Of a stretch of DNA of 64,000 nucleotides, positions 32,926 to 54,047 are shown one piece after another; positions within the stretch are counted from its first letter, which is position 1; each line of letters begins with the position of its first letter. Source of the DNA: Thermoanaerobaculia bacterium (GTDB lineage Bacteria > Acidobacteriota > Thermoanaerobaculia > Multivoradales > Multivoraceae). A program made the position numbers and the translations under genes. Below the pieces are notes generated by a model. The model was not told the origin of the DNA. It saw only the letters and a program-made list of their open reading frames with translations, and searched no databases. The stretch is from NCBI GenBank assembly GCA_963664405.1, contig OY761158.1:416001-480000 (forward strand), in the 5' to 3' direction.

Positions 32926-33668
32926 GAAGGCACAGCGAGAAAGTCGAGGTTGAGCGAAGGTTTCTGAAGCTTTGAGCATCCCCTATACCAAGAGCCCTCC
33001 GCGGAAGACCGCTGGGCAAGTCGAATCAACGGAACTGGAGGTAGGGGATGAAGAACAGAACGTTTCGTACCGCGCTCGGTTGTCTGTCGGTCTGCGCTTT
33101 GCTGGCCTCGGCCGCAGCTCCCGCTCACGCCGGGCCCGGAGAGCGCCGGCTCGATCTCGAGCAGGGCCTCAAATCAGAATCGCTCACGCCGGTACCGCAG
33201 GCCGAAGAGGCGGGTGGTGAGAACAGCGAACCGAGCAAGGCCCTCCGAGTCGAGGAGTTTCGCCTCCATGAGGCCGCCGAGGCCTATTCGCGCTCAGAGG
33301 CGGGGGTGGTGTTGATGGCTGCGAGAAAGCGCATCCCGTTGGCTGCGAGCGCAGTTTCCGGGATGGAGTGAGCTGAGGGCTTCGCGACCGCGGGAAAGCT
33401 AGGCCTTCTTCAGGAAGGGCGGCATCATCCCGCCGGAACGGCGGTCCGGGTGCGTGGTCCCGGCGGCGTGTTTGCGGTCGGAAGAGATGCGTGAGTCGGT
33501 GTAGGGCTTTGCAGTGCGGGCTCTGCTCTGATAGAGCAGGCCGACCAGAGACGGCGAGAGCCCGGGAAAGCGAAGTAGAAAACGCCCCGGGCTCTGCCCC
33601 AAACCGCAGCATTAGCTGCGCTTGCAGTATGGCAGAGAGTCGGGGTCGTCGTCGAATGGGAGGCGACG

Positions 33669-34064
33669 ATGCGACCGGACTACCGACTCTTCGACTGTGC
33701 TCGATGCCGTCGGCGTATCTCGCTGTGCTCGCACTGTGACCGTGGCCAGCGTTACTGCCGGGCTTGTGCTCTGGTGGCTCGTCGGGAATCGACTCGGGCG
33801 GCCGGCCATCGGTACCAGCGAAGCCTCCGAGGTCGGCATTGTCATGCCGCCCGTCAGGCCCGCTACCGTCGGCGCCAGCGCGAGCGGGCAGAGAAAGTGA
33901 CGCATCAGGGTACCCCAGGCGGTACTTCGGGGAGGACACTGTGTCGGATCGAGACTCCGAGGCGCGAAGTGCGCTACGACCCGAGGAATCCGCGATGCAT
34001 GCAGTGTGGAGAGGCCTGCCGAGAGTTTGTGCGAACGAGCTTTCGTCGTTGCCGACGGAGATAG
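33669..34064 (+). CDS. IS21-associated Cys-rich, Arg-rich protein (putative zinc finger)
   Basis: GGAGG SD; CARC-x6-CSHC-DRGQRY-CRAC, basic helix, KVTH, CMQCGEAC; homolog at 49622-50113. Confidence 0.8.
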   Translation: MRPDYRLFDCARCRRRISLCSHCDRGQRYCRACALVARRESTRAAGHRYQRSLRGRHCHAARQARYRRRQRERAEKVTHQGTPGGTSGRTLCRIETPRREVRYDPRNPRCMQCGEACREFVRTSFRRCRRR

Positions 34065-34068
34065 GGGC

Positions 34069-35577
34069 GTGATCGACGCACAGCTGCGCGGGGAGATCCG
34101 TCGTCTGTTCCTGGTCGAGAAGTGGAAAGTCGGCACGATCGCTCGACAGCTACAGCTGCACCCCTCAACCGTGCGCCGGGCGCTGGAGAAGTCCGGCGTG
34201 CTACCCCAGCAGCGACGAGGGAGGATGATCGATCCTTACCTGCCGTTCATCGAGCAGGTGCTCGGGACCTACCCACGACTGCCGGCGAGCCGTCTCTACA
34301 CCATGGTGGTGGAGCGCGGCTATCCAGGAGGCCCGGATCAGTTTCGCCACCTGGTGGCCTCGATGCGACCGAAGCCCCAGCGCGAGGCGTTTCTCTCGCT
34401 GCGCATGCTGCCAGGAGAGCAGGCGCAGGTCGACTGGGGCCACTTCGGTCGGCTCCGCGTCGGCCGGGCACATCGTCGGCTCTATGCCTTCGTCTTCGTG
34501 CTGTCGTTCTCGCGCACGGTCTTCGTGCACTTCACCCTCGACACTCGTCTCGAAACCTTCTTGCACGCTCACCAGCTGGCCTTCCACTACGTCGACGGCG
34601 TCGTCAGGACCGTTCTGTACGACAACCTGCGAACCGCGGTGATCGAGCGGCAGGGAACCGCGGTGCGCTTCCATCCCGTGCTGCTCGATTTCGCCAGCCA
34701 CTACGGCTTCCTTCCCACCGTCGCCGCGGTGGCTCGGGGAAATGAGAAAGGCCGCGTCGAGCGCGCAATCCGCTTCCTGCGAAGCTCGTTCTTCGGCGCC
34801 CGAACGGTGAGCGATTTGGATCGTCTGAATCGGCAGGTCCTGGAATGGTGCCAGAGGTCGCAGCGCAGACCCTGGCCGCAGGACCGACAGCGAACCGTGA
34901 AAAGCGCCCTGGCCCAGGAACGACCTCGACTGCTTGAGCTTCCCGGAGACGACTTCGAAACCGACCTGCGACTGGAGATCAAGGTCAGAAAGACGCCGAT
35001 CGTGCGCTTCGACCTCAACGACTACTCGGTGCCGCACAGTCATGTGCAGAGGACCGTCACGCTCCTCGCCAGCGAGCATCGGGTGCGGATCCTCGATGGC
35101 CAGGAGCTCCTCGCCGAGCACCCTCGCTCGTACTCCCGGGGCGAGCAGATCCTCGATCCTCAACACCTCGAGGAGCTCCTCGCTCACAAACGCAGGGCCC
35201 GACGACACCGGGGCTTCCATCGGCTGTTTTCCGCTGTGCCTCGATGCGAAGAGCTGATGCAGCAGCTCGCCGAGCGAGGCGAGAACCTCGGAACGCAGAC
35301 CGCCGGCCTGCTCCGACTCCTGCGCCAGTACGGCCCCCAGCGACTCGACAAAGCCGTGCGCGAAGCGCTCCTGAACCACGCACCGCGATTCCAGTCCGTC
35401 CGGCTCCTACTCGAACGGCACCAGCGCGGCCTCGGTCAGCCCCCGGCTTTACCGGTGCCGCTCAGCCAGGAGCTCCAACAGCGAGATCTCTCCGTGAGAC
35501 CGCACAACCTCGAGGACTACGACCAACTTGGAGGCAACGACGATGGCCCGACCCAGGAAGAGTCCAACGATCCCTGA
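34069..35577 (+). CDS. istA: IS21 transposase IstA
   Basis: N-terminal HTH; 'PGEQAQVDWG', 'LYDN', 'GNEKGRVERAI', 'FDLNDYSVP'. Confidence 0.96.
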   Translation: MIDAQLRGEIRRLFLVEKWKVGTIARQLQLHPSTVRRALEKSGVLPQQRRGRMIDPYLPFIEQVLGTYPRLPASRLYTMVVERGYPGGPDQFRHLVASMRPKPQREAFLSLRMLPGEQAQVDWGHFGRLRVGRAHRRLYAFVFVLSFSRTVFVHFTLDTRLETFLHAHQLAFHYVDGVVRTVLYDNLRTAVIERQGTAVRFHPVLLDFASHYGFLPTVAAVARGNEKGRVERAIRFLRSSFFGARTVSDLDRLNRQVLEWCQRSQRRPWPQDRQRTVKSALAQERPRLLELPGDDFETDLRLEIKVRKTPIVRFDLNDYSVPHSHVQRTVTLLASEHRVRILDGQELLAEHPRSYSRGEQILDPQHLEELLAHKRRARRHRGFHRLFSAVPRCEELMQQLAERGENLGTQTAGLLRLLRQYGPQRLDKAVREALLNHAPRFQSVRLLLERHQRGLGQPPALPVPLSQELQQRDLSVRPHNLEDYDQLGGNDDGPTQEESNDP

Positions 35578-36337
35578 CGAACCACTACGAGAGCTCGCCC
35601 GATCCCTCGGCTTCTACGCCCTCGTCGACGACTGGGGCACCTACCGAGAACAGCCCTGGCTCGAACAGCTGCTGCGCAAAGAAGAGGCCGAGCGCAAACG
35701 GCGCAGCCTCGAACGGCGCATCCGCACCAGCCGCGTCGGGCTCTTCAAGAGCATCGCCGACTTCGACTTCTCCTGGCCCCAGCGCATCGACCGCGAGCAG
35801 ATCCAGGATCTGCTCACCCTCCAATTCCTCGACGACATCACCAACGTCATCCTCCTCGGACCCAACGGTGTCGGCAAGACCATGATTGCCAAGAACCTCC
35901 TCTACCAGGCGCTGCAACGAGGGGCCACCGCCAGCTTCGTCACCGCCTCCGACATGCTCAACGATCTCGCCGTCCAGGAAACCCCCTCGGCGCTCCAGAG
36001 AAGGCTCTCCAAATACACCCGACCCTCGCTTTTGGCAATCGATGAGCTCGGCTATCTCTCCTACGACCACCGCCACGCGGATCTCCTCTTCGAGGTCGTC
36101 TCCAGGAGATACGGCAACAAGCCCATTCTTCTCACCACCAACAAGCCCTTCGCCGAATGGGCCGAGGTCTTTCCCAACGCCTCCTGCGTCGTCACTCTCG
36201 TCGATCGACTCACCCACCACGCCGAGATCGTCAAGATCGAGGCTAACTCCTATCGCCGCAAGGAGGCCAAGGAGGCTGCTGAAAAAAAGGCCAAGGACCG
36301 CGCCAAAAGGCGGAGCGCAGCACGACGACGCTCATGA
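35543..36337 (+). CDS. istB: IS21 AAA+ helper ATPase IstB
   Basis: 'DFDFSWP', Walker A 'GPNGVGKT', Walker B 'LAIDELGY', 'TTNKPF.EW', 'DRLTHH', 'SYR'. Confidence 0.96.
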   Translation: MARPRKSPTIPDEPLRELARSLGFYALVDDWGTYREQPWLEQLLRKEEAERKRRSLERRIRTSRVGLFKSIADFDFSWPQRIDREQIQDLLTLQFLDDITNVILLGPNGVGKTMIAKNLLYQALQRGATASFVTASDMLNDLAVQETPSALQRRLSKYTRPSLLAIDELGYLSYDHRHADLLFEVVSRRYGNKPILLTTNKPFAEWAEVFPNASCVVTLVDRLTHHAEIVKIEANSYRRKEAKEAAEKKAKDRAKRRSAARRRS

Positions 36338-36691
36338 CCCGAAGCCACTATCGGCGCCAGCTCCTCCGCCTCTATCGACTCCTTCCCGACACCCCGCACC
36401 GCTTCCACCACGGCGACCGCGTCATCGTCGACCAGCTCTTCGACCAAGACCTGCCTCTCACCGTCCTCCAGGCCGCCCTCCTCCTCGGCTCCGCCCGACG
36501 CGCATGCCGAGATCCGCGCCTACCAAAGCTCCAGCCCATCCGATCCCTCGCCTACTTTCTCCCCATCCTCCGAGAACTCCCCACGACGCCACCCCCCGAA
36601 GGGGTACCTCGACTATCTGCGCCACACCCTGAGTCACGCCTCGCGGGGACAAAAAACCGACTCGCAGCCAACTAAGTGCGCTTTCTCGTAG
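36334..36691 (+). CDS. IS21-associated small helical protein (apparent +1 frameshift at the G-run 36601-36604)
   Basis: ATGA coupling to istB; 'YRRQLLRLYRLLPDTP...IRSLAYFLP'; removing one G restores 'EGYLDYLRH', matching homolog 'PQYVRYILLRH'. Confidence 0.75.
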
Positions 36692-36850
36692 CCGGTAACA
36701 GGTGGCAGCCGCCGCGGCCGCCGAGGCCACTCCAAGGCGCCACGGCTTCGGACGGTGGCTCAAGAAGCACTGGTACGTTCCTGTGCTGGTAGGCGCCGCC
36801 ATCGGCTTTGCCGTCTCCGATGACAGCGACGATCCGAACGAGATAGACGA

Positions 36851-37016
36851 CTAGACCAGCGTTTTCAAAGTTCGGGTTGCATAGCTCGAGCTCATTCTGT
36901 TCGCTGGCAAGGCGCGCCGACGCAGGCATATTGGGCAATATGTCGAGGAGGCGCAACGCCGGCAGCGGGCAGAAGGGGCCGAGATATGTACGCGAACTTT
37001 GGAAACGCTGGTCTAG
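36851..37016. repeat. CTAG-bounded palindromic MITE-like element, copy 2
   Basis: CTAGACCAGCGTTTTCAAAGTTCG ... CGAACTTTGGAAACGCTGGTCTAG; same core as copy 1. Confidence 0.9.
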
Positions 37017-45225: not shown

Positions 45226-46953
45226 ATGTCCGATCTTCGCTACGAGGTCCACGATCGACCGCCGCATCTGCTCTCGGCCGCTCTAGGCTTTCAGGTCGTC
45301 GTTCTCATCCTCGCCGGCATCGTCCTGGTCCCGGTGATCGTCCTCAAAGCGGCCGGAAGCGCCCCCCCCATCATCACCTGGGCCGTCTTCGCGGCGCTCT
45401 TGGTCAGCGGCCTGATCACGATCGTGCAGGCGAGGCCGATCGGACCTGTCGGCGCCGGCTACGTCCTCTTCATGGGCACCAGCGGCGCCTTCATCGCGGT
45501 TTCGACGGCGGCGGTGAAAGCCGGCGGCCTCGCTCTTCTTGCGACCCTGGTCGCTCTCTCGTCGCTCATCCAGTTCGCCTTCTCGGCACGCCTCGCACTC
45601 TTCCGCAAGGTCATTACGCCAACGGTCGGCGGCACGGTCATCATGTTGATCGCCGTCGACGTGTTTCCTATCTGCTTTGGCATGCTGACGACCGTCCCCG
45701 AGCATGTCGATCCGGCGTCCAACGCCGGTCCGCTCACCGCAGCAGCTACCTTTGCCGTCATTCTCTTCGTTTCTCTCTTAGGCACCGGAAAGGCCAGGCT
45801 CTGGGCACCTCTCATCGGCGTCATCGTCGGTTGCAGCGTCGGCTATGGAGTAGGCCTGTTCAACCTCGAGGCGGTGCGTAGCGCCCCTTGGATCGGCATC
45901 CCGTCCGCAGGGTGGCCGGGCCTCGATCTCTCTTTCGACGCGCGACTCTGGAGCCTGCTTCCCGCCTTTCTCATCGTCACCATCGTCGGCGCAATCGAGA
46001 CCTATGGCGACGGCATCGCCATCCAGAGGGTCTCGAAGGGTCGTCGCGAGCCGGTGGACTTCAAGGCTGTGCAGGGCGCCGTCAACGCTGACGGGGTCGG
46101 CAATCTACTCTCCGGGCTGGCCGGAACTCTTCCAAACACCACCTACTCCACCAGCATCTCGGTCGTCGAGCTCACCGGTGTCGCCGCGCGGCGTGTTGGC
46201 ATTTACGCCGGAGCGCTGATGGTGGCTTTCGCCTTCCTGCCCAAGGTCTCGGCCCTGCTCCAGTCGATTCCCGACGCAGCCGCGGGGGCCTACATCATGA
46301 TCCTCCTGGCCCTTCTCTTCGCCCAGGGTCTACGTCTGGTATCGGACGGCGGTCTCTCCTACGAGAACGGCCTCGTGGTCTGCCTTTCGTTCTGGATTGG
46401 GACCGGGTTCCAGGGCGGGCTGATCTTTCCCACCCAGATGCCCGAGTGGGCGCACACCCTCCTCGACAACGGCATGACCTCTGGCGGAGTCACCGCCATC
46501 CTTCTCACCCTGCTCTTGTCGATCAAGCATCGTTCCCACGACCGCCTCAAGCTCGAAGCGGCCCCTGCGGCAGTACCGGCGTTACACGATTTCCTCAAAT
46601 CGATCGCCAGCCGAGCCGGCTGGGATCAGACCGCGGTCGACCGACTCCAGCTCGCCGGTGAGGAAGCTCTACTCTTTCTCATCACCAAAGAGGAGGAAGC
46701 GGAGCGAGCCGGCGAGGCAGCAATCGGAGTTTCGGCTCGCGAGTCGGAAGGGGTTATCGAGCTCGAGTTCGCCAGTGGCCCGGGCGCCGCCAATATCGAG
46801 ATTCTGGTCCGCGACCTCGATGATGCGGATCGCGCCCCCTCCGATGACGCAGGACTCCGTATCCTCCGCCATCTGGCTAAAGAACTGCGTCACGAGCAGT
46901 TCCACGACCGCAACTATCTGATGGTCAGAGTGGAGAGCAAGCCGCTGGCCTAG
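45226..46953 (+). CDS. NCS2 (xanthine/uracil/ascorbate) permease with C-terminal RsbW-like domain
   Basis: Multiple TMs; 'MGTSGAF', 'IETYGD', 'ADGVGNLLSG..GTLPNTTYS', 'TGVAARRVG'; extra ~130-aa C-terminal domain. Confidence 0.85.
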   Translation: MSDLRYEVHDRPPHLLSAALGFQVVVLILAGIVLVPVIVLKAAGSAPPIITWAVFAALLVSGLITIVQARPIGPVGAGYVLFMGTSGAFIAVSTAAVKAGGLALLATLVALSSLIQFAFSARLALFRKVITPTVGGTVIMLIAVDVFPICFGMLTTVPEHVDPASNAGPLTAAATFAVILFVSLLGTGKARLWAPLIGVIVGCSVGYGVGLFNLEAVRSAPWIGIPSAGWPGLDLSFDARLWSLLPAFLIVTIVGAIETYGDGIAIQRVSKGRREPVDFKAVQGAVNADGVGNLLSGLAGTLPNTTYSTSISVVELTGVAARRVGIYAGALMVAFAFLPKVSALLQSIPDAAAGAYIMILLALLFAQGLRLVSDGGLSYENGLVVCLSFWIGTGFQGGLIFPTQMPEWAHTLLDNGMTSGGVTAILLTLLLSIKHRSHDRLKLEAAPAAVPALHDFLKSIASRAGWDQTAVDRLQLAGEEALLFLITKEEEAERAGEAAIGVSARESEGVIELEFASGPGAANIEILVRDLDDADRAPSDDAGLRILRHLAKELRHEQFHDRNYLMVRVESKPLA

Positions 46954-47045
46954 CCCCAGAAAACGCGCCTTCGGCCCGTTTTCCGGCCCATCCCCGCCTG
47001 AGAACTACTCGCCTGTCCGAATTCTCGGACACGTGTTATCGGCGG

Positions 47046-47399
47046 TCATAAAGTGCGGGATTCCGGCTGTGTAGTGGCGCTTTTGGTTTCATCCTCCTCG
47101 AGAAGGGACCGGTGCCGAAGGAGGATGTAGCGGACGTATTGAGGGTCGAGCTCGTCGTTGGTCAGGGCTCGATGTACGGAGCGGTAGTAGGCAAGTGAGT
47201 GAATCTGCGGCAGCGGATCGGTGCTGAGGCGCCGTCGCAAGGTGGCGAGTCGAATGGCATGGGCAAGCTCTTCGAGGGGGACGTTGGCTTGATAGAGCTT
47301 GTCGGCGATGGCCCAGTCTCGGCGCCGAGGTCTAGACGGGGTTTTAGGAGCGTCGAGGTAGAGGCGGATGAGCTCGGCGCGATACTCCTGTCGGATCAC
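47046..47399 (-). CDS. IS21-associated small helical protein
   Basis: GTGA coupling to the istB stop; 'YRAELIRLYLDAPKTP...DWAIADKLY...IHSLAYYRSV'; homolog of 36334. Confidence 0.8.
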   Translation of the reverse strand: MIRQEYRAELIRLYLDAPKTPSRPRRRDWAIADKLYQANVPLEELAHAIRLATLRRRLSTDPLPQIHSLAYYRSVHRALTNDELDPQYVRYILLRHRSLLEEDETKSATTQPESRTL

Positions 47400-48169
47400 G
47401 AGGTCTTCGCACTGCGCCGTCGAGGGCGAGTGCCGCTTCGGCGGGCCGAAGCGCGCTTCTTGGCGTGCTCCTTGGACTCCTTGAGCCGATAGGAATCGCC
47501 CTCGATGTTGACGAGCTCGCAGCGATGGACGAGGCGATCGACGATGGTGACGACGGTAGTAGCGTTGGGGAAGACCTCTCCCCATTCTCCAAAGGACTTG
47601 TTTGTGGTGATGAGAAGGGACTTATTTTCGTACCTGCGGGAAACGACCTCGAAAAGTAGATCGGCGTGGCGCGTGTCGTAGGACAGATATCCGAGCTCGT
47701 CAATGCAGAGCAGGGATGGGCGCGCAAAGAGCGCGAGCTTGCGCTGAAGGCTGGTCGAGGAGTCTTGTTCGGCGAGGGTGTTGAGCAGCTCCGAGGCGGT
47801 GAGGAATCGGGCGGTGGCTCCACGTAGTACGGCTTGATGGGCGAGATTCTTGGCAATGAGCGTCTTGCCGATGCCGTTTGGCCCTATCAAGACAGCGTTG
47901 TGCCCTCGGGCGAGCCACTCGAGCCGAAAGAGATCTTCGATCTGCTCGCGGTCGATCTTCTTGGGCCAATTCCAGTCGAAGTCGGCCAGCGGCTTGAAGG
48001 TGCCGAGCCGGGCCCGACCCAGGCGTCGCTCCAGTCCGCGACGGGCTCGCTCCTGCTCTTCCCAGTCGAGCAGGTCGGGGAGCCAGGGTTGGTTGGCGAC
48101 CTCATCCCAGTGGGCTAGGAGGCCATGGAGTTTCAGGGCTGTGGCACGCTCTTGGTCGGTGTTGTTCAT
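47396..48169 (-). CDS. istB: IS21 AAA+ helper ATPase IstB
   Basis: 'GPNGIGKT', 'LCIDELGY', 'TTNKSFGEW', 'DRLVH', 'GDSYR'. Confidence 0.96.
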   Translation of the reverse strand: MNNTDQERATALKLHGLLAHWDEVANQPWLPDLLDWEEQERARRGLERRLGRARLGTFKPLADFDWNWPKKIDREQIEDLFRLEWLARGHNAVLIGPNGIGKTLIAKNLAHQAVLRGATARFLTASELLNTLAEQDSSTSLQRKLALFARPSLLCIDELGYLSYDTRHADLLFEVVSRRYENKSLLITTNKSFGEWGEVFPNATTVVTIVDRLVHRCELVNIEGDSYRLKESKEHAKKRASARRSGTRPRRRSAKTS

Positions 48170-49665
48170 TCGTCGTCCTCCTCGTCGTTGGGGTTGTCGT
48201 AGTCGGCCAGTGCATGGGGAGTGACCGTGAGCTCCCGGATCCTGGGATCGTCGGGGAGCTGGACAGGCAGCGCGGGTAGGAGTCCCCGCTCGTGGCGCCG
48301 ACGATCGAGGATGAGTCGCACCGCTTCGGGATGCGGGGATCCTTTTTCGAGGGCCTCGTCGATCGCCACTGCAAGCTCCCTGGGTCCACTCTCGGCAAGG
48401 AGCTCGAGGAGTCTGGCGACGGCACTCGAGAGTCGTCTCTGCCGTCGGGCCAGCTCCCGCAGGAGCTCTTCGGCCTGGGGCACCGTACGCAGCAGGTAGT
48501 CCTGGCCGCGCTGTGTACGTGCCTCGCGTTTCTGTCGTTCCAGCTCTTCTAGGTGACGGGGGTCTTCGATGATCTGGCCCTTGTCCCAGGACCTTGTGTG
48601 CTCGGCGATGAGCTGCTCGCGATCGAAGATGCGCACACGCTCCGGGTCTGCGGCGATCTGTAGCGAGCGGGCGATGCGATCATGCGGGATCGAGTAGCGA
48701 TTCGCATCGAAGCTCAGGTAAGGAGTGCGCCGCGTGATCCGCTCGACCCATTCGTGGCAGGGGAAAGGCTGCGCCGGAAGGCTCACGAGATGAGAGCGCT
48801 CCTCGAGATAGGCCTGCTCGACGGTGCGACGCCGGTCCTGGGGCCACGGGCGCTTCATCGCTCGGTCGCGACACCACTCCAGAGCGTCCCGGTTCAGCGC
48901 TTCTCTGTCCCAGGTGCGACGCAGCGGAAAGAAGGAAGTTCTGACAAAACGAATGGCTCGTTCGACGCGACCTTTTTCATTTCCTCGTCTGGGAGCAACG
49001 GGCCTTGGATCAAAGCCGTAGAAGTCGGCGAGCTCGAGAAGCCGTGGATGAAAGCGAATGGCGCTGCGGCGCCGCTCGAGCACAGCGCTGCGCAGATTGT
49101 CGTAGAGGTGGATCTTGGCCAGACCCTCAAAGAAGGAGAAGGCGAGGACATGCCCGGTCAGGAAGCTCGGCAGACGAGCGTCGTAGAAGAAGTGCAGAAA
49201 GAGAGCTCGCGAGTAGCTCAGCACCATGACGAAGGCGTAGAGACGGCGCTCTCCGCCATCGACCTTTCGGGTGCCGAAGTGAGCCCAGTCCACCTGGGCC
49301 TGTTCGCCGGCAAGCGTACGGAGCACAAAGAAAGCCTCAGGCGCCTTGCGGGGGCGCAGGCCGAGCTCGGCAATGCAGTGGCGGAAGTGATCCTCCCCAC
49401 CGGGATAGTCACGCTTCTTGACCATCTCGTAGAGCACGCTCGCCGGCAGCTCCGGGTAGCGCTCAAAGACTTCCTGGATGAAGGGGACGAAGCGATCGAC
49501 CATGGACGCTCGTCGCGGCGATCGAGGCCGGCTCAGCCCTTCGCGTCGAAGGACTCGAGTGACCGTCGAGTGATGGATTCCCAGATGGCGGGCGATCGTG
49601 TTGCGCCGCCAGCCCTCCGACTCATAGAGACGGCGGATCTCGGCGGCGAGCTCGGGAGAGATCAT
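48166..49665 (-). CDS. istA: IS21 transposase IstA
   Basis: HTH; 'GEQAQVDW', 'LSYSR', 'LYDN', 'GNEKGRVERAI', 'FDANRYSIP'. Confidence 0.96.
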   Translation of the reverse strand: MISPELAAEIRRLYESEGWRRNTIARHLGIHHSTVTRVLRREGLSRPRSPRRASMVDRFVPFIQEVFERYPELPASVLYEMVKKRDYPGGEDHFRHCIAELGLRPRKAPEAFFVLRTLAGEQAQVDWAHFGTRKVDGGERRLYAFVMVLSYSRALFLHFFYDARLPSFLTGHVLAFSFFEGLAKIHLYDNLRSAVLERRRSAIRFHPRLLELADFYGFDPRPVAPRRGNEKGRVERAIRFVRTSFFPLRRTWDREALNRDALEWCRDRAMKRPWPQDRRRTVEQAYLEERSHLVSLPAQPFPCHEWVERITRRTPYLSFDANRYSIPHDRIARSLQIAADPERVRIFDREQLIAEHTRSWDKGQIIEDPRHLEELERQKREARTQRGQDYLLRTVPQAEELLRELARRQRRLSSAVARLLELLAESGPRELAVAIDEALEKGSPHPEAVRLILDRRRHERGLLPALPVQLPDDPRIRELTVTPHALADYDNPNDEEDDE

Positions 49666-50113
49666 CCCGCGCCCGCCTGCGCACCGGGCGTACTCGGCGC
49701 GATCGCAAGAAGTCGTGGCGGACAATCGGCTCGCAAGGATGGCGGCACAGCCTGCAGAGAAGCTCCTCGTTCCGACCTCCAACGGACAAGCCTTGCAAAA
49801 ACAACGGAAGCGGCGCGGTGGGCCATGACGCCACCGTCGCAGGGCAGCCCCCGGTGCGGCAACTGTGATGCGTCACTTTCTTTGAGCCTTGCTGCTTGCG
49901 ATCTCGATAGGCCTGCTGACGACGAGCATGCAAGCGGCGCCCTCGCGGCGTCTGCTGATAGCGACGCCCGGCCCCGCGAAGGCTGTGGCGCCGAGCCTCA
50001 TCCCGGCACTCCGGCGTGCAATAACGATGGCCGCGATCGCACCAAGAGCAAATGTAGACAGCTTGCCGGCAACGATCGCAAACGAAACGGCGACAATCGG
50101 GACGGCGGCGCAC
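49622..50113 (-). CDS. IS21-associated Cys-rich, Arg-rich protein (putative zinc finger)
   Basis: AAGGAGG SD before GTG at 50113; CDRC-x6-CSWC-DRGHRY-CTPEC, basic helix, KVTH, CRLCRHPC. Confidence 0.8.
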   Translation of the reverse strand: MRRRPDCRRFVCDRCRQAVYICSWCDRGHRYCTPECRDEARRHSLRGAGRRYQQTPRGRRLHARRQQAYRDRKQQGSKKVTHHSCRTGGCPATVASWPTAPLPLFLQGLSVGGRNEELLCRLCRHPCEPIVRHDFLRSRRVRPVRRRARDDLSRARRRDPPSL

Positions 50114-50377
50114 GGCCCAGGCCTCCTTCGGCCTGGACTTCGCCACCCGCAGGCGGAATACTCCCTCTTCTGGGGCGTCATACCCCAGGCCTTCCGGCGG
50201 TGGGCGGTCACCTTGCTTGGAGTCGCCCCCGCCGGTCTCCCCATACTCCCACCTGCCACGCTGCTCGCGCGCTCGCGCGCGACGATGATGCTGAAGAGAC
50301 TCTCAGCAGGAAACGCGGTCAGAAAGCCGGGATCGCGCGCTTCTTAAGCGCCGTTGACAACACGCTCCTAGCCTCCA

Positions 50378-50397: not shown

Positions 50398-50668
50398 CTC
50401 CGGCTAGTTGCAGTTTGGCGCCGAGGACGGCGCACTCAGGCGTTGATTCCTATTCGCTTCGGAAACGCCGGGGCCGATTCTTCACCGACATCGTGACGAA
50501 TAGCCCTGCACTCTTGTCCTCTCTTGTCCGGATTCGGTCATTCATGATGCTCCTACTGCGGTGCCGCAGCACCTCGCTACGGACCTCATGAATACTCCAG
50601 GCTAAGCGGAATCCCCGGGCCCCCATCCTCGCCGTCTAGCGAGACCCCCTTAGCGAGGTGCTCATGGG

Positions 50669-50693
50669 AGCCCGGGAACCCACAGCCCGGGCT
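50669..50693 (-). terminator. hairpin downstream of the 50710 gene
   Basis: AGCCCGGG-N9-CCCGGGCT; no clear U-tract. Confidence 0.35.
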
Positions 50694-50709
50694 TGACTCC
50701 TGATCTTGA

Positions 50710-51414
50710 CTAGTCGATCCCGAACTCCGTCTCCGAGATGGTTTGGTTGCCGCTCTCCTCGATCGCCAAGACCTCCCACTTACACTCATCCGCCCCATCC
50801 AGGACCTCGGGTGCGACGGTCAGAGTCGTCACCATCGGCCCGACGTCAGCCTCGAGCTTTCGTAGGGCCGGCTCTTCGCACTCGACGACGACGTGATAGC
50901 TAACGATCTCGCTACCAGGCGGATCGGCCACCGGCGCCCACTCGAAGACGGCGTCCTCGGGGTCGACGTCCTCACCGTCCTTGGGAAAGACCTGAAGCGG
51001 TGCCGCAGGGAGCGCGTGCGTCAGCATTGCCTTGCCTTTGAGGCTGTGCCCGTCGGTGGTCATACCCTTGAAAACGTAAGTGCCCTCTGGAAACAAGGCG
51101 AGGAGATCGGCCAGCGGTTGCTCGTCGAAACTCGGCTCGGCGCTCTCGAAGAAAAGCTCGGTGATCCCTTGTATGCCGACGCTGCCCTTCCCTTTGAAGT
51201 TGAGGATGGTGTTTCCATCCGGGTCCTTGACTTTCATCTTGTCCCAGCCTTCGCCGTCCAAGAAAATCTGAATGCCTGCATCTCCGTCCGTGTCGTTGAT
51301 TTCAAACCATATCCCCACCTCGCTGAGTGGCCTCGCCTGCACCTGCGGCGCGCCCAACCCCAACAACAGTGCGACGATGGCCATCGTTGGTAACCAAACT
51401 GTTCTACCCGTCAT
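50710..51414 (-). CDS. secreted acidic beta-rich hypothetical protein (FN3-like C-terminus)
   Basis: Signal peptide; 'FEINDTDGDAGIQIFLDGEGW', 'FFESAEP', 'EVLAIEESGNQT'. Confidence 0.7.
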   Translation of the reverse strand: MTGRTVWLPTMAIVALLLGLGAPQVQARPLSEVGIWFEINDTDGDAGIQIFLDGEGWDKMKVKDPDGNTILNFKGKGSVGIQGITELFFESAEPSFDEQPLADLLALFPEGTYVFKGMTTDGHSLKGKAMLTHALPAAPLQVFPKDGEDVDPEDAVFEWAPVADPPGSEIVSYHVVVECEEPALRKLEADVGPMVTTLTVAPEVLDGADECKWEVLAIEESGNQTISETEFGID

Positions 51415-51826
51415 ATCTCTTCCTCCTAGAAGTGCGAGAGAGTTAATGCCTCGAGAAGCGTTCCCGCACGCCGCTCCTCTCTCAATGAAGATGCACGCAC
51501 GGCGGAATCCCCTCGATCTCTTTCGAGTTTCTTCAAAGACCAAAAAATCGGCGGACTCCACGGGACTCCCTCGACTCGCCGGAAGAGATGCTGAGCGAGT
51601 TGTACTGAGAGAGCCCCGGGAGCCCAACCCAGGAGCTCCGTCTCAGACCGGGCATGGTTTTGCCATCCTCCTCAGTCCGAGAGGTAATGGCCTCCTGGAG
51701 CGTTCTCCCACGCCGCTCCTAAATCAATAGGATACGCAGAAGGCGGGACCCCCTCGACATTCTTCCGAGCCCAGGATCTCAGAGCGGAGGCCGGTGCACC
51801 GGACTCGGCTCACCGAGAGCTCTCTT

Positions 51827-52159
51827 CTAGGCTTTGCCGAAGAAGGCATCGGCCACGAAGAACTTCACCCGTTCGCGCTCCTCATCGCCAAGCTCCTCGA
51901 AACGAAGAGCCATCCCAGCATTGGCCTCGGTCCAAACTACGGAGGCCTTACAGCGAATCGGGCTCTCTCCTGTCTCGCCTGGCAGAGCGAAGGTCAGAGT
52001 CACCGACTCGCCTGCCGGGAGAGGGGTGAGAGTCCCGGCGTACACGCCCGTTTCACTAATGTCTTCGATCCGAGCTTCGAAGGTCGCTCCGCGCGCTTCG
52101 ATCGCAGCCTCGATCGGACTGGATACTCGGACGGCTCGCCTCTCTACCTCAAAAGACAT
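51827..52159 (-). CDS. PilZ domain protein
   Basis: 'ERRAVR' (RxxxR) and 'DISETG' (DxSxxG) c-di-GMP motifs. Confidence 0.88.
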   Translation of the reverse strand: MSFEVERRAVRVSSPIEAAIEARGATFEARIEDISETGVYAGTLTPLPAGESVTLTFALPGETGESPIRCKASVVWTEANAGMALRFEELGDEERERVKFFVADAFFGKA

Positions 52160-52508
52160 GGCTTCGCACCCCTTCTGCCCCCGGCCTCCGCCGACCGATC
52201 AATTTCAGTCACCGCGACGGCAATAGATGTCTCCAATAGCTTACATTCGTGACGCATGAATCAAGTCTTTCTCAAAGCGAATTCGTGCCGGGCGTTCAGG
52301 GTGCCCCAGATCGCCGCAGCGCGAAGGATCTCGGCGACGTAGGCGTACTGAGGGGTACGTTGGCGGTGAGTGGGGTGCAGCTGAATGGCCGGAGGTTCGG
52401 GATGCGCCGTCCTCGGCGCCATGTTCCGCATCCGGAGGAAGTGATACCGATCACTTCCGTAGGATGCGACGAGCACGCGGTGAGGTGGGGTGCCCTGGAC
52501 GGCCGGCC

Positions 52509-52679
52509 TTAGCGGCCAACGCCCATCGCCCGGTGCAGTACAAAGCCGATCGAGCCGACCGCCGCCACCAGAGACGCGACCAGCCAGAAGCGCCATCCCT
52601 CGCTCCAAGCTATCCAAGCGAAATAGGCGAAGCCAAATCCTACGCATACGGCCATCGGGATGGCTTGGTTCGCCTTCAT
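52509..52679 (-). CDS. small two-TM hypothetical protein
   Basis: 'MKANQAIPMAVCVGFGFAYFAWIAW...WLVASLVAAVGSIGFVLH' with GGAG upstream. Confidence 0.35.
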   Translation of the reverse strand: MKANQAIPMAVCVGFGFAYFAWIAWSEGWRFWLVASLVAAVGSIGFVLHRAMGVGR

Positions 52680-52769
52680 TCTTGAGCTCCACTCCCGGTC
52701 TTGTTTCCGTGCCTGGCAAGCCGAGGCGCCGCGCCCGCCAATGATAGCCTCCTCGGCGGTAGGCACGAC

Positions 52770-54047
52770 ATGACCTCGACCACTGTCCACAACGAGACCG
52801 GTCACGAGATTCCCGGTTTCCGCCCGGTTCCCCGTACTGGCGTGATCTATGTCATGCATCGCGCACAAGAGCTCGGCTTCGCTTCCCATCGAGAGGAGTG
52901 GTCCAACCTTGGGCAAGGAGCCCCGGAGTGCGGTTTGATTCCGGGCGCACCTGCACGCAGAGAGCAGGTCCTGATCCCGCCGTCTCATCACGAGTACGCC
53001 CCCATCGGTGGCATCCGCGTTCTTCGAGAGAAAGTCGCCGACCTCTACAACCGCGCTTATCGAAAAGGTCGCTCTTCGCTCTACACCGCCGATAACGTCA
53101 GCATCGCACCCGGCGGCCGCGCCGCGATGACTCGACTCGTGGCGGCGATGGGCGAGGTGAACATGGGGCACTTCATCCCCGACTACACCGCCTACGAAGA
53201 GCTTCTCAGCACCTTCAAAGGCTTCGTCCCGATCCCCATCCTGCTCAGCCGACGAGCCGGCTACAGAATCGGTATCGAGGAACTGGAACGCGAGATCGTC
53301 GGCCGCGGTCTTTCCGCCCTCCTCTTCAGCAACCCCTGCAATCCCACCGGCCAGCTGGTCGAGGGTAGGGAGCTAGAGCAGTGGGTGGAGCTAGCGACGA
53401 GAGAGCGTTGCACGATGATTGTTGACGAGTTCTACAGCCACTACATCTACGGCAGCGCGGCCGCAGAGGCCCGAATGGTTTCCGCGGCTGAGTTCATCGA
53501 CGACGTCGAGCAAGACCCGGTAATCATGGTTGACGGCCTCACCAAGAACTGGCGCTACCCAGGCTGGAGGGTGAGCTGGATCGTCGGGCCCCGCGAGATC
53601 ATCGCTCAGGCGACCAGCGCCGGATCCTATCTGGACGGCGGAGCCAACCACCCCTTCCAGCGAGAAGCCGTGACTCTGCTCGATCCTGGGCTGGTGCACC
53701 AAGAGACCCAGGCCATCCAGCAAGAGTTCCAATCCAAACGACAGTACCTTCTCGCCCGGCTGCGCGATCTCGGCGTTGAAGTCGACGTAGATCCGCAGGG
53801 GGCCTTTTACGTTTGGGGCAATCTGCACCGCCTGCCTCCTCCCCTCGACGACGGAATGCACTTCTTCGAGGCGGGCTTGAAAGAGAAGGTCATCACCGTT
53901 CCCGGAACCTTCTTCGACGTCAACCCGGGCAGACGTCGTGCTCACGGGCGCTACCAAAGTTACTCCAGGTTCAGTTTCGGGCCCTCATTACCGGAGCTCG
54001 AGCGCGGCCTCGATTCCGTCGAGCGCATCGTTCGTTCCGCGAGCTGA
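52770..54047 (+). CDS. class I/II PLP-dependent aminotransferase
   Basis: 'NLGQGAPE', 'SNPCNPTG', 'VDEFY', 'DGLTKNWRYPGWRV', 'PQGAFY'. Confidence 0.92.
   Translation: MTSTTVHNETGHEIPGFRPVPRTGVIYVMHRAQELGFASHREEWSNLGQGAPECGLIPGAPARREQVLIPPSHHEYAPIGGIRVLREKVADLYNRAYRKGRSSLYTADNVSIAPGGRAAMTRLVAAMGEVNMGHFIPDYTAYEELLSTFKGFVPIPILLSRRAGYRIGIEELEREIVGRGLSALLFSNPCNPTGQLVEGRELEQWVELATRERCTMIVDEFYSHYIYGSAAAEARMVSAAEFIDDVEQDPVIMVDGLTKNWRYPGWRVSWIVGPREIIAQATSAGSYLDGGANHPFQREAVTLLDPGLVHQETQAIQQEFQSKRQYLLARLRDLGVEVDVDPQGAFYVWGNLHRLPPPLDDGMHFFEAGLKEKVITVPGTFFDVNPGRRRAHGRYQSYSRFSFGPSLPELERGLDSVERIVRSAS

Follow-up and report, generated by a model that had tools for sequence, protein, structure and literature searches.

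A conserved gene for a Cys/Arg-rich protein ahead of istA in a cross-phylum IS21 subfamily

The locus

The window analysed here is a 64,000-nucleotide (nt) stretch of DNA from a Thermoanaerobaculia bacterium (contig OY761158.1 of assembly GCA_963664405.1, positions 416,001 to 480,000, forward strand). It carries two divergent insertion sequences (IS) of one IS21 subfamily, here called element A and element B. In both elements a small open reading frame (ORF), orf1 in A and orf1b in B, precedes istA, the gene for the DDE transposase, and encodes a Cys/Arg-rich protein. orf1 is very probably a real gene and a fixed part of this one IS21 subfamily. Table 1 lists the features.

The element that holds orf1 belongs to the IS21 family. 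It encodes IstA and IstB, has inverted ends, makes short target duplications and is present in multiple copies. IstA scores 244.8 bits against NF033546 (cut-off 160) and IstB 210.6 bits against NF038214 (cut-off 200). The inverted ends are 40 nt in length and 80% complementary. In a BLAST search of its own genome the element aligns 22 times over more than 3300 bp at ≥ 99.8% identity, and the copies are scattered along the chromosome. Target duplications are found at 19 of the 21 copies in which both ends are intact (18 of 5 bp and one of 6 bp). Element B has five further full copies at ≥ 99.9% identity in the genome and one at 94.9%.

In element A the predicted GTG start of istA, placed from the sequence and from an alignment with relatives, is 4 nt past the orf1 stop codon (TAG at 34062–34064). 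The sequence GGAG at 34057–34060 is inside orf1 and 8 nt ahead of this GTG. The predicted ATG start of istB is at 35543, in a reading frame that opens at TTG 35528. In element B the 3' end of orf1b overlaps the start of istA, and orf1b has a predicted GTG start at 50113.

Table 1. Coordinates of elements A and B and of their parts in the window
Feature	Position	Strand	Basis
IS21-family insertion sequence, element A, 3391 bp, orf1-istA-istB-orf4	33310–36700	+	genome BLAST, target-site duplications
Left terminal inverted repeat of A, starts TGTT, two GGCTGCGAG repeats inside	33310–33349	+	40 nt, inverted-repeat search, aligned ends
Stem-loop over the orf1 AUG, 9 pairs, 8-nt loop	33645–33670	+	RNAfold, covariation
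orf1, 131-amino-acid (aa) Cys/Arg-rich protein	33669–34064	+	ATG-to-TAG frame, family, purifying selection, AlphaFold2 model
istA, IS21-family DDE transposase	34069–35577	+	NF033546 1.3e-72; rve and Mu-transpos_C_2
istB, AAA+ helper ATPase	35543–36337	+	IstB_IS21 (PF01695) 1.8e-62; NF038214 2.6e-62
orf4, 113-aa helical protein, last gene	36334–36675	+	homologue in element B
Right terminal inverted repeat of A	36661–36700	+	pairs with left end
Divergent element B, same subfamily, 3326 bp, orf1b-istA-istB-orf4b	47034–50359	-	ORFs, genome copies
orf1b, paralogue of orf1	49622–50113	-	45% identity; ORF 49622–50146

Conservation and coding evidence for orf1

Alignment of the two window copies shows that the N-terminal part of orf1 has the pattern C10xxC13-x6-C20SHC23-DRGQRY-C30xxC33. 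This is followed by RAAGHRYQRSLRGRHCHAARQARYRRR, then KVTH and then C110xxC113xxxC117. orf1b has the same motif pattern but with Cx3C, at 43% identity in the motif alignment. A search with orf1 locates the homologous part at 49694–50104 on the minus strand (45% identity, E 1.6e-17). The motif string given in the first-pass annotation of the window (CxxC-x6-CSxC-DRGxRY-Cx(2-3)C, a basic stretch, KVTH and a distal CxxCxxxC) is thus present in both copies. An alignment of 28 sequences has R6, C10, C13, C20, S21, C23, D24, R25, G26, Y29, C30, C33 and R38 invariant, as well as Y49, Q50, G55, H59, A60, R62, Q63, T78, H79, C110, C113 and R122. The distal motif had been written as CxxCxxxC; its CxxC part (C110 and C113) is among these invariant residues, but the third Cys, C117, is not. 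Over 120 sequences there are eight conserved Cys residues, six invariant and two present in ≥ 90%; H79 is invariant and H59 is present in ≥ 90%.

The protein has many relatives. A word-indexed search finds 232 proteins at E ≤ 1e-3 among 308 candidates. The best 120 of the 232 are 84 to 221 residues long, are named "hypothetical protein" wherever the source gives a name, and have no precomputed Pfam domain. A family profile built from 120 relatives matches 3915 representatives of 50%-identity clusters at E ≤ 1e-3, 2717 at ≤ 1e-10 and 617 at ≤ 1e-30. The window's own genome has 23 identical copies of orf1, eight of the paralogue type and one fragment.

The window is G+C-rich and two long minus-strand ORFs overlap orf1 (33184–33939 and 33612–34136), so an open frame that arises from base composition or from selection on the opposite strand was considered. 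RefSeq annotates the opposite strand in places, or no gene. Against this, the plus frame of orf1 is open in 27 of 27 homologous DNA segments and the other plus frames in 0 of 27; among the antisense frames, the best two each stay open in 8 of 27. The ratio of nonsynonymous to synonymous substitutions (dN/dS) is 0.20–0.36 in the closest pairs, with a median of 0.33 over 12 pairs with dS < 1. Frame openness together with a dN/dS of about 0.3 refutes conservation through the antisense frame, which the first-pass annotation had named as the result that would overturn its proposal. The Cys pattern is also invariant across thousands of sequences and the predicted fold is confident. That orf1 is no gene at all is therefore scarcely credible. 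The first-pass annotation is borne out in so far as a real and conserved Cys/Arg-rich protein is encoded ahead of istA; AlphaFold2 predicts a basic helical hairpin in it.

The gene has largely escaped annotation. In 13 of 18 plasmid records (RefSeq, PLSDB) that have an orf1 homologue, nothing is annotated under the match. In RefSeq entries of cultured carriers the homologue is unannotated, truncated or placed on the wrong strand. Annotation of locus L089 (NC_016108.1) covers no more than the last 63 codons of the homologue, and at L090 (NZ_AP023183.1) a "hypothetical protein" is annotated on the strand opposite to it. No published description of the gene was found in the full-text literature, a search that had ISfinder and supplementary files outside its scope, so an earlier listing as an unnamed ORF is possible.

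Linkage to istA and to one IstA clade

A scan of one genome per prokaryotic species gave 253 stretches encoding an orf1 relative, from which 80 loci were kept. In 76 of the 80, istA is on the same strand 2–281 nt (median 57.5) after the orf1 match. Three of the other four reach a contig end first, and L052 is without istA within 5 kb. The loci span Acidobacteriota, Beta- and Gammaproteobacteria, Planctomycetota, Myxococcota and others, and elements of this type are also present on plasmids of cultured Burkholderia, Cupriavidus, Aromatoleum and Methylotuvimicrobium.

IS21 transposases were also sampled without regard to orf1 in 121 Acidobacteriota genomes. A match was obtained in 29 genomes, the window's own included; 30 loci were returned and one, from an unpublished genome, was left out. 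orf1 is present at 5 of the 29 loci. Three other IS21 types in the window's own genome are without it. A maximum likelihood tree of 79 distinct IstA proteins places 59 of 60 orf1-linked proteins in one clade with a Shimodaira-Hasegawa-like approximate likelihood ratio (SH-aLRT) support of 99, and all 19 orf1-less proteins are outside it.

A passenger gene that has no part in transposition, such as an anti-defence gene, a gene that interferes with the host or a partner of the fourth ORF, is another reading of orf1. The protein has no known function, and the elements also hold a variable fourth gene (see below); a very basic protein and a small acidic one could pair. Across phyla, however, orf1 keeps the same place, with the left end before it and istA after it (76 of 80 loci). 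Passengers usually vary, but orf1 has been inherited along with a single IstA clade, and it stays when the fourth gene changes. Neither PADLOC nor PHROG gives a match. We regard a passenger as very unlikely. orf1 is inside the inverted ends, in a fixed place and linked to one IstA clade, which makes it a core part of the IS.

Fusion of orf1 to IstA by frameshifting was considered and rejected. No fused protein was found among the homologues, of which five are longer (231–274 aa). The istA frame is closed 4–21 nt past the orf1 stop in L016, L020, L022, L037, L080, L084, L085 and L113, which rules out a conserved frameshift fusion of the IS1/IS3 type.

Predicted structure of the orf1 protein

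An AlphaFold2 model of orf1, made with a 120-row alignment, has a mean predicted local distance difference test (pLDDT) score of 84.1 and a predicted template modelling (pTM) score of 0.62. Strands at residues 5–9 and 16–20 form a beta-hairpin that spans the first two CxxC pairs. Helices at 31–51 and 53–75 form an alpha-hairpin that contains most of the invariant Arg, Tyr, Gln and His residues, and the third Cys pair (C30 and C33) is at the start of the first long helix. Residues 78–108 are a low-confidence linker, after which there are C-terminal strands with the invariant CxxC. The model suggests a compact metal-bound module that is closed by the distal CxxC and from which the basic alpha-hairpin projects. 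The product of orf1 is small, very basic and probably zinc-binding, and the many Arg residues and the modelled basic alpha-hairpin point to nucleic acid binding.

The fold has no counterpart in the collections searched. No Pfam family matches orf1 at E ≤ 0.1, and NCBIfam, PHROGs and PADLOC give no match either. Structures of TniQ and TnsD are deposited in PDB. Foldseek, which had been put forward as a check against TniQ and other zinc fingers, returns no PDB match at E ≤ 10, and sequence profiles also return none from PDB at E ≤ 10. BFVD has no match at E < 1 (best E 1.8). The 30 nearest ESM Atlas clusters are all without a common Pfam family, and the nearest named entries (NinG 0.85, Cys_rich_VLP 0.83, DUF7576 0.81) are all below the lead threshold. 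Over the 120 family members, Cys-rich domains appear at sub-threshold level: Rhodanese_C in 38 of 120 (best E 0.0065), NinG in 8 of 120 (best E 0.011) and zf-C4_ClpX in 2 of 120. Placement in a known zinc-finger or zinc-ribbon family (Rhodanese_C, NinG, ClpX C4) was rejected for want of a significant profile match. The Cys spacing presumably resembles that of MYND/HIT cross-brace fingers.

Predicted complex with IstA and IstB

IstA, IstB and orf1 were modelled together as three chains, each with an alignment and with orf1 as the scored partner. The score is 0.57 (0.58, 0.57 and 0.53 in the individual runs), compared with 0.00 for the best of three controls, and is rated as weak support. Contact agreement between the runs is at least 64% and the pLDDT of the partner is at least 64. 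The control that keeps orf1 and IstB but replaces IstA scores 0.00. The signal therefore depends on IstA; the same control is no evidence against binding of orf1 to IstB.

The score was calibrated on 80 solved complexes, of which 58 reach the mark, and on 110 mismatched pairs, of which 2 do; these counts are rough for the present case, which has its own alignments and three chains. At scores ≤ 0.60, 7 of the 80 solved complexes pass and both passing mismatches are in this same band, so that a pass of this size is wrong oftener than right unless the pairing is likely beforehand. Here strict linkage and co-inheritance with one IstA clade give a reasonable prior for a link between orf1 and IstA. 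An association of the two is a weak lead from modelling and not a finding, and IstA rather than IstB is the tentative partner. Of the link to the Ist proteins proposed in the first-pass annotation, the IstA part thus gains weak, IstA-dependent support, and for contact with IstB the prediction allows no usable statement.

The start-codon hairpin and expression of orf1

The leader ahead of orf1 in element A is 359 nt. Its 3' end forms a hairpin in which positions 33645–33653 pair with 33662–33670, nine pairs that include two G-U pairs. The A and U of the AUG are buried in the stem, and the GGGAGG Shine-Dalgarno sequence is in the loop and the 3' arm. The energy is -17.0 kcal/mol with a z score of -3.9 (RNAfold), and the hairpin recurs in a fold of 371 nt. 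Leaders of most relatives have CATCGGC-N6-9-GCCGATG or a variant of it. Across 61 distinct leaders a seven-pair hairpin has 84.7% of cells paired, compared with 26–63% when the partner is slid by 1–3 columns, a control that somewhat favours the hairpin since the structure was taken from one of the 61 aligned leaders. Double changes number 28, compared with 10.7 in shuffled alignments of these leaders (0 of 500 reach 28). Pair 4, for example, is CG in 16 leaders, GC in 12, UG in 10 and UA in 6. This covariation points to a folded strand rather than a palindrome that is read by a protein. In element B and its close kin the hairpin is placed differently, just ahead of the start. The simplest reading of the start-codon hairpin is a brake on orf1 translation. 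The hairpin also bears on the RNA binding that the first-pass annotation put forward as a possible activity of the protein.

A longer structured RNA at the left end, also proposed in the first-pass annotation, did not hold up beyond this hairpin. The folding z scores are modest (-3.25 over 371 nt and -2.98 over 260 nt), no Rfam family matches the leader at E ≤ 1, and the leaders of elements A and B give no convincing alignment.

In the leader alignment a short conserved motif, TGTC...CAG or GTCCAG, is found about 10–25 nt upstream of the hairpin. Farther upstream, many betaproteobacterial leaders have TAT(G/T)TCACGAAGCG. These conserved stretches may be promoter or binding-site elements. A promoter scan gives no sigma-70-like site, a result that says little for Acidobacteriota.

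The hairpin raises the question of whether orf1 is a regulator of expression, one that binds the leader DNA or its own mRNA hairpin and sets the level of orf1, istA and istB with no part in the DNA chemistry. Autogenous repression by InsA of IS1 and translational activation by Com of phage Mu would be analogies. orf1 opens the operon, a position that small regulators also have in other IS families, and the covarying stem-loop over its start could be opened or locked by an RNA-binding zinc-finger or Arg-rich protein. In element A the istA start is 4 nt past the orf1 stop with its Shine-Dalgarno sequence inside orf1, and control of orf1 translation could therefore spread to istA. In most relatives, though, the gap between orf1 and istA is about 40–280 nt (median 57.5), so translational coupling is not general. 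The hairpin may also work alone as a brake in cis, it is differently placed in element B and its kin, the promoter scan and Rfam offer no site or family, and the complex score with IstA, weak as it is, points to a protein partner. A pure expression regulator is, on this evidence, rather unlikely.

Target choice and comparison with TniQ

The first-pass annotation suggested that orf1 is a minimal analogue of TniQ, a target selector. In such a role orf1 would read a feature of the target and pass it to the IstB ATPase. The TniQ/TnsD core is described as about 300 aa in length (PMC10293859) and has a helical domain, a zinc finger, a connector helix and a second helical domain. orf1 is 131 aa with a beta-hairpin, an alpha-hairpin, a linker and a C-terminal CxxC, an architecture unlike this Hel1-ZF-linker-Hel2 arrangement. 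It has no TniQ match in Pfam and no match to a TniQ fold in PDB. TniQ is also absent from the 25 of 48 families listed for the 120 members of the orf1 family (E ≤ 1); that list runs down to single-member matches, and the 23 unlisted families are taken to be single-member matches too.

The insertion sites give no motif. Over 18 insertion sites of element A with 5-bp duplications, no position of the 50 examined exceeds 0.61 bit. With no site consensus and with copies spread over the chromosome, there is no sign of TnsD-like site specificity. A selector guided by structure or by a host protein would leave no sequence motif and would escape this comparison. Three of the 22 copies of element A are within 150 bp of a 167-bp repeat, where about 0.4 would be expected by a rough estimate, a suggestive but weak association. 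Canonical IstB, for its part, picks targets by DNA shape unaided (PMC11208146). The lack of sequence and fold similarity and the scattered sites make a TniQ-like selector highly improbable, and the proposal is not upheld.

Element A copies and their flanking repeats

The 167-bp repeat is found in the window at 36850–37016. It has about 375 BLAST hits in the 6.78-Mb genome at 86–97% identity and looks like a miniature inverted-repeat transposable element (MITE) or an element resembling repetitive extragenic palindromes (REP). The IS copy at genome positions 6281845–6285234 has pieces of this repeat on both sides. A second repeat of about 85–97 bp (46940–47033) abuts the right end of element B in the window and has many copies in the genome at 96–100% identity.

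The copies of element A at 50517–53906 and 6746429–6749818 (genome C1) are the two among the 21 intact copies that have no target duplication. One of the two has a flank that is also found beside the copy at 5444194, a hint that copies have recombined or that the insertion went into another repeat. At C1:2641757–2650333 a copy of element A (2646767–2650158) is inserted within a copy of element B, parts of which flank it.

Proposed role of orf1

We take orf1 to be a dedicated third component of one monophyletic, cross-phylum IS21 subfamily. As to what it does, we tentatively favour a zinc- and nucleic-acid-binding accessory protein or regulator that works with IstA, a reading whose chances we put a little short of even. 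The six N-terminal Cys residues (CxxC-x6-CSxC-x6-CxxC) and the distal CxxC would bind metal and close into a compact knot, from which a 45-residue Arg-rich helical hairpin would project to bind nucleic acid. One transcript would yield orf1, IstA and IstB. orf1 most likely acts with IstA, as its cofactor or else by restraining end recognition and the assembly of the transpososome, and in this it would be unlike a TniQ-type selector that recruits IstB. The conserved stem-loop, with the orf1 start codon shut inside it, would gate the synthesis of orf1. In element A, where istA starts 4 nt past the orf1 stop, the hairpin probably gates istA too.

Several observations weigh against joint action of orf1 and IstA. 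The three-chain score falls in the weak band and came without an interface; the controls were not matched for charge, and an Arg-rich helix might score unspecifically on an acidic surface. Pfam, NCBIfam, PDB and BFVD offer no sequence or structural relative of characterised function. The IstA tree comes from a quick search with long-branch warnings, and its orf1-linked loci were gathered through orf1 while the orf1-less comparison rows are from one phylum. One locus, L118, is an exception to the linkage: orf1 is 741 nt from the istA frame and its IstA is a long branch outside the clade. L118 may consist of pieces of two elements at one locus. A docking patch was sought among clade-specific IstA residues, and the 67 positions found are scattered and mark no site. 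The lengths of the IstA domains are equal in orf1-linked and orf1-less elements. orf1 therefore replaces no lost IstA domain, and compensation for a missing one is ruled out.

A bolder form of the partnership is that orf1 is a third transposition subunit, an adaptor that docks on IstA and licenses or steers IstA-IstB to a target feature other than sequence. DNA structures, intermediates of replication or repair, and host proteins are conceivable features of this kind. Such an adaptor role is quite unlikely; if true, IS21-family elements would have in orf1 their first known selector or licensing factor. In a related bold version orf1 would read the covarying start-codon hairpin, so that the element senses its own dosage.

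Comparison with known systems

Mu is the closest transposon relative of IS21, and Com of Mu and Ogr of P2 are very small Cys4-type proteins from mobile elements, each with a single RNA hairpin or a single promoter as its target. orf1 has no detectable homology to such proteins (PHROG, Pfam, and BFVD at E < 1), is larger and has a long basic alpha-hairpin. IS1 InsA and IS3 OrfA are small upstream DNA-binding regulators, thought to bind the ends and damp transposition. Like them, orf1 is short, comes first on the transcript it shares with the transposase, and has a motif for DNA or zinc binding. InsA and OrfA share their DNA-binding part with the transposase via programmed frameshifting. orf1 differs in that it has no fused form, the istA frame is closed in several loci and its sequence is not similar to theirs.

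Structures with several ORFs are typical for IS21 and IS66 (PMC3281130), and the model IS21 system is described in PMC11208146 as two proteins, IstA and IstB, with shape-based target choice by IstB alone. Element A is like canonical IS21/IS5376 in its IstA and IstB, which pass NCBIfam cut-offs, in its multiple copies, in its TG-initiated inverted ends with repeated subsites and in its short target duplication. It is unlike them in having an extra conserved gene ahead of istA, another after istB and the long leader ahead of the first gene. The likeness of orf1 to TniQ/TnsD is that of a small-to-medium zinc-finger protein whose gene neighbours those of a DDE transposase and an AAA+ regulator akin to IstA/IstB (PMC10293859). 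The differences are the lack of sequence or fold similarity, the absence of Hel1 and Hel2, the absence of any site-specific insertion among the sites seen and a partner signal that depended on IstA.

IS21 is the structural model for control of a DDE transposase by an AAA+ ATPase and is treated as a two-protein system, and yet in one large branch, spread over several phyla, the transposase gene is preceded by an extra gene that is strictly linked to it. To establish the role of orf1 would be to test whether a third factor can serve regulation or targeting in IS21-type machines, as in the related machines of Tn7 and Mu. The start-codon hairpin is a direct handle on how elements of this type keep their own activity low, and knowledge of the orf1 family would improve the annotation of thousands of IS copies.

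Fourth genes of the subfamily

The frame of orf4 ends 25 nt ahead of the right end of element A. orf4 and orf4b (47046–47585, minus strand) share 38% identity over 82 aa (E 5e-12). orf4 has nine homologues, and its model has four helices and a pLDDT of 83.4; it has no match in Pfam, NCBIfam, PHROG or PADLOC and no Foldseek match at E < 1. This 113-aa helical type is found in Acidobacteriota and Planctomycetota kin.

Loci that are mostly proteobacterial have a different fourth gene after istB. It encodes an acidic protein of about 63–71 aa, found at 44 loci by jackhmmer, that is not homologous to the Acidobacteriota orf4. The protein has the motif WTPE..A..V..LLDDL, for example in L089 (6754–6945) and L090 (6690–6905).

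The C-terminus of the window copy of orf4 departs from the GYLDYLR motif of its relatives. A near-identical copy from a metagenome-assembled genome (L009) scores above the window copy on the profile, 178.8 compared with 153.2 bits. The window copy may have a frame change near the right end.

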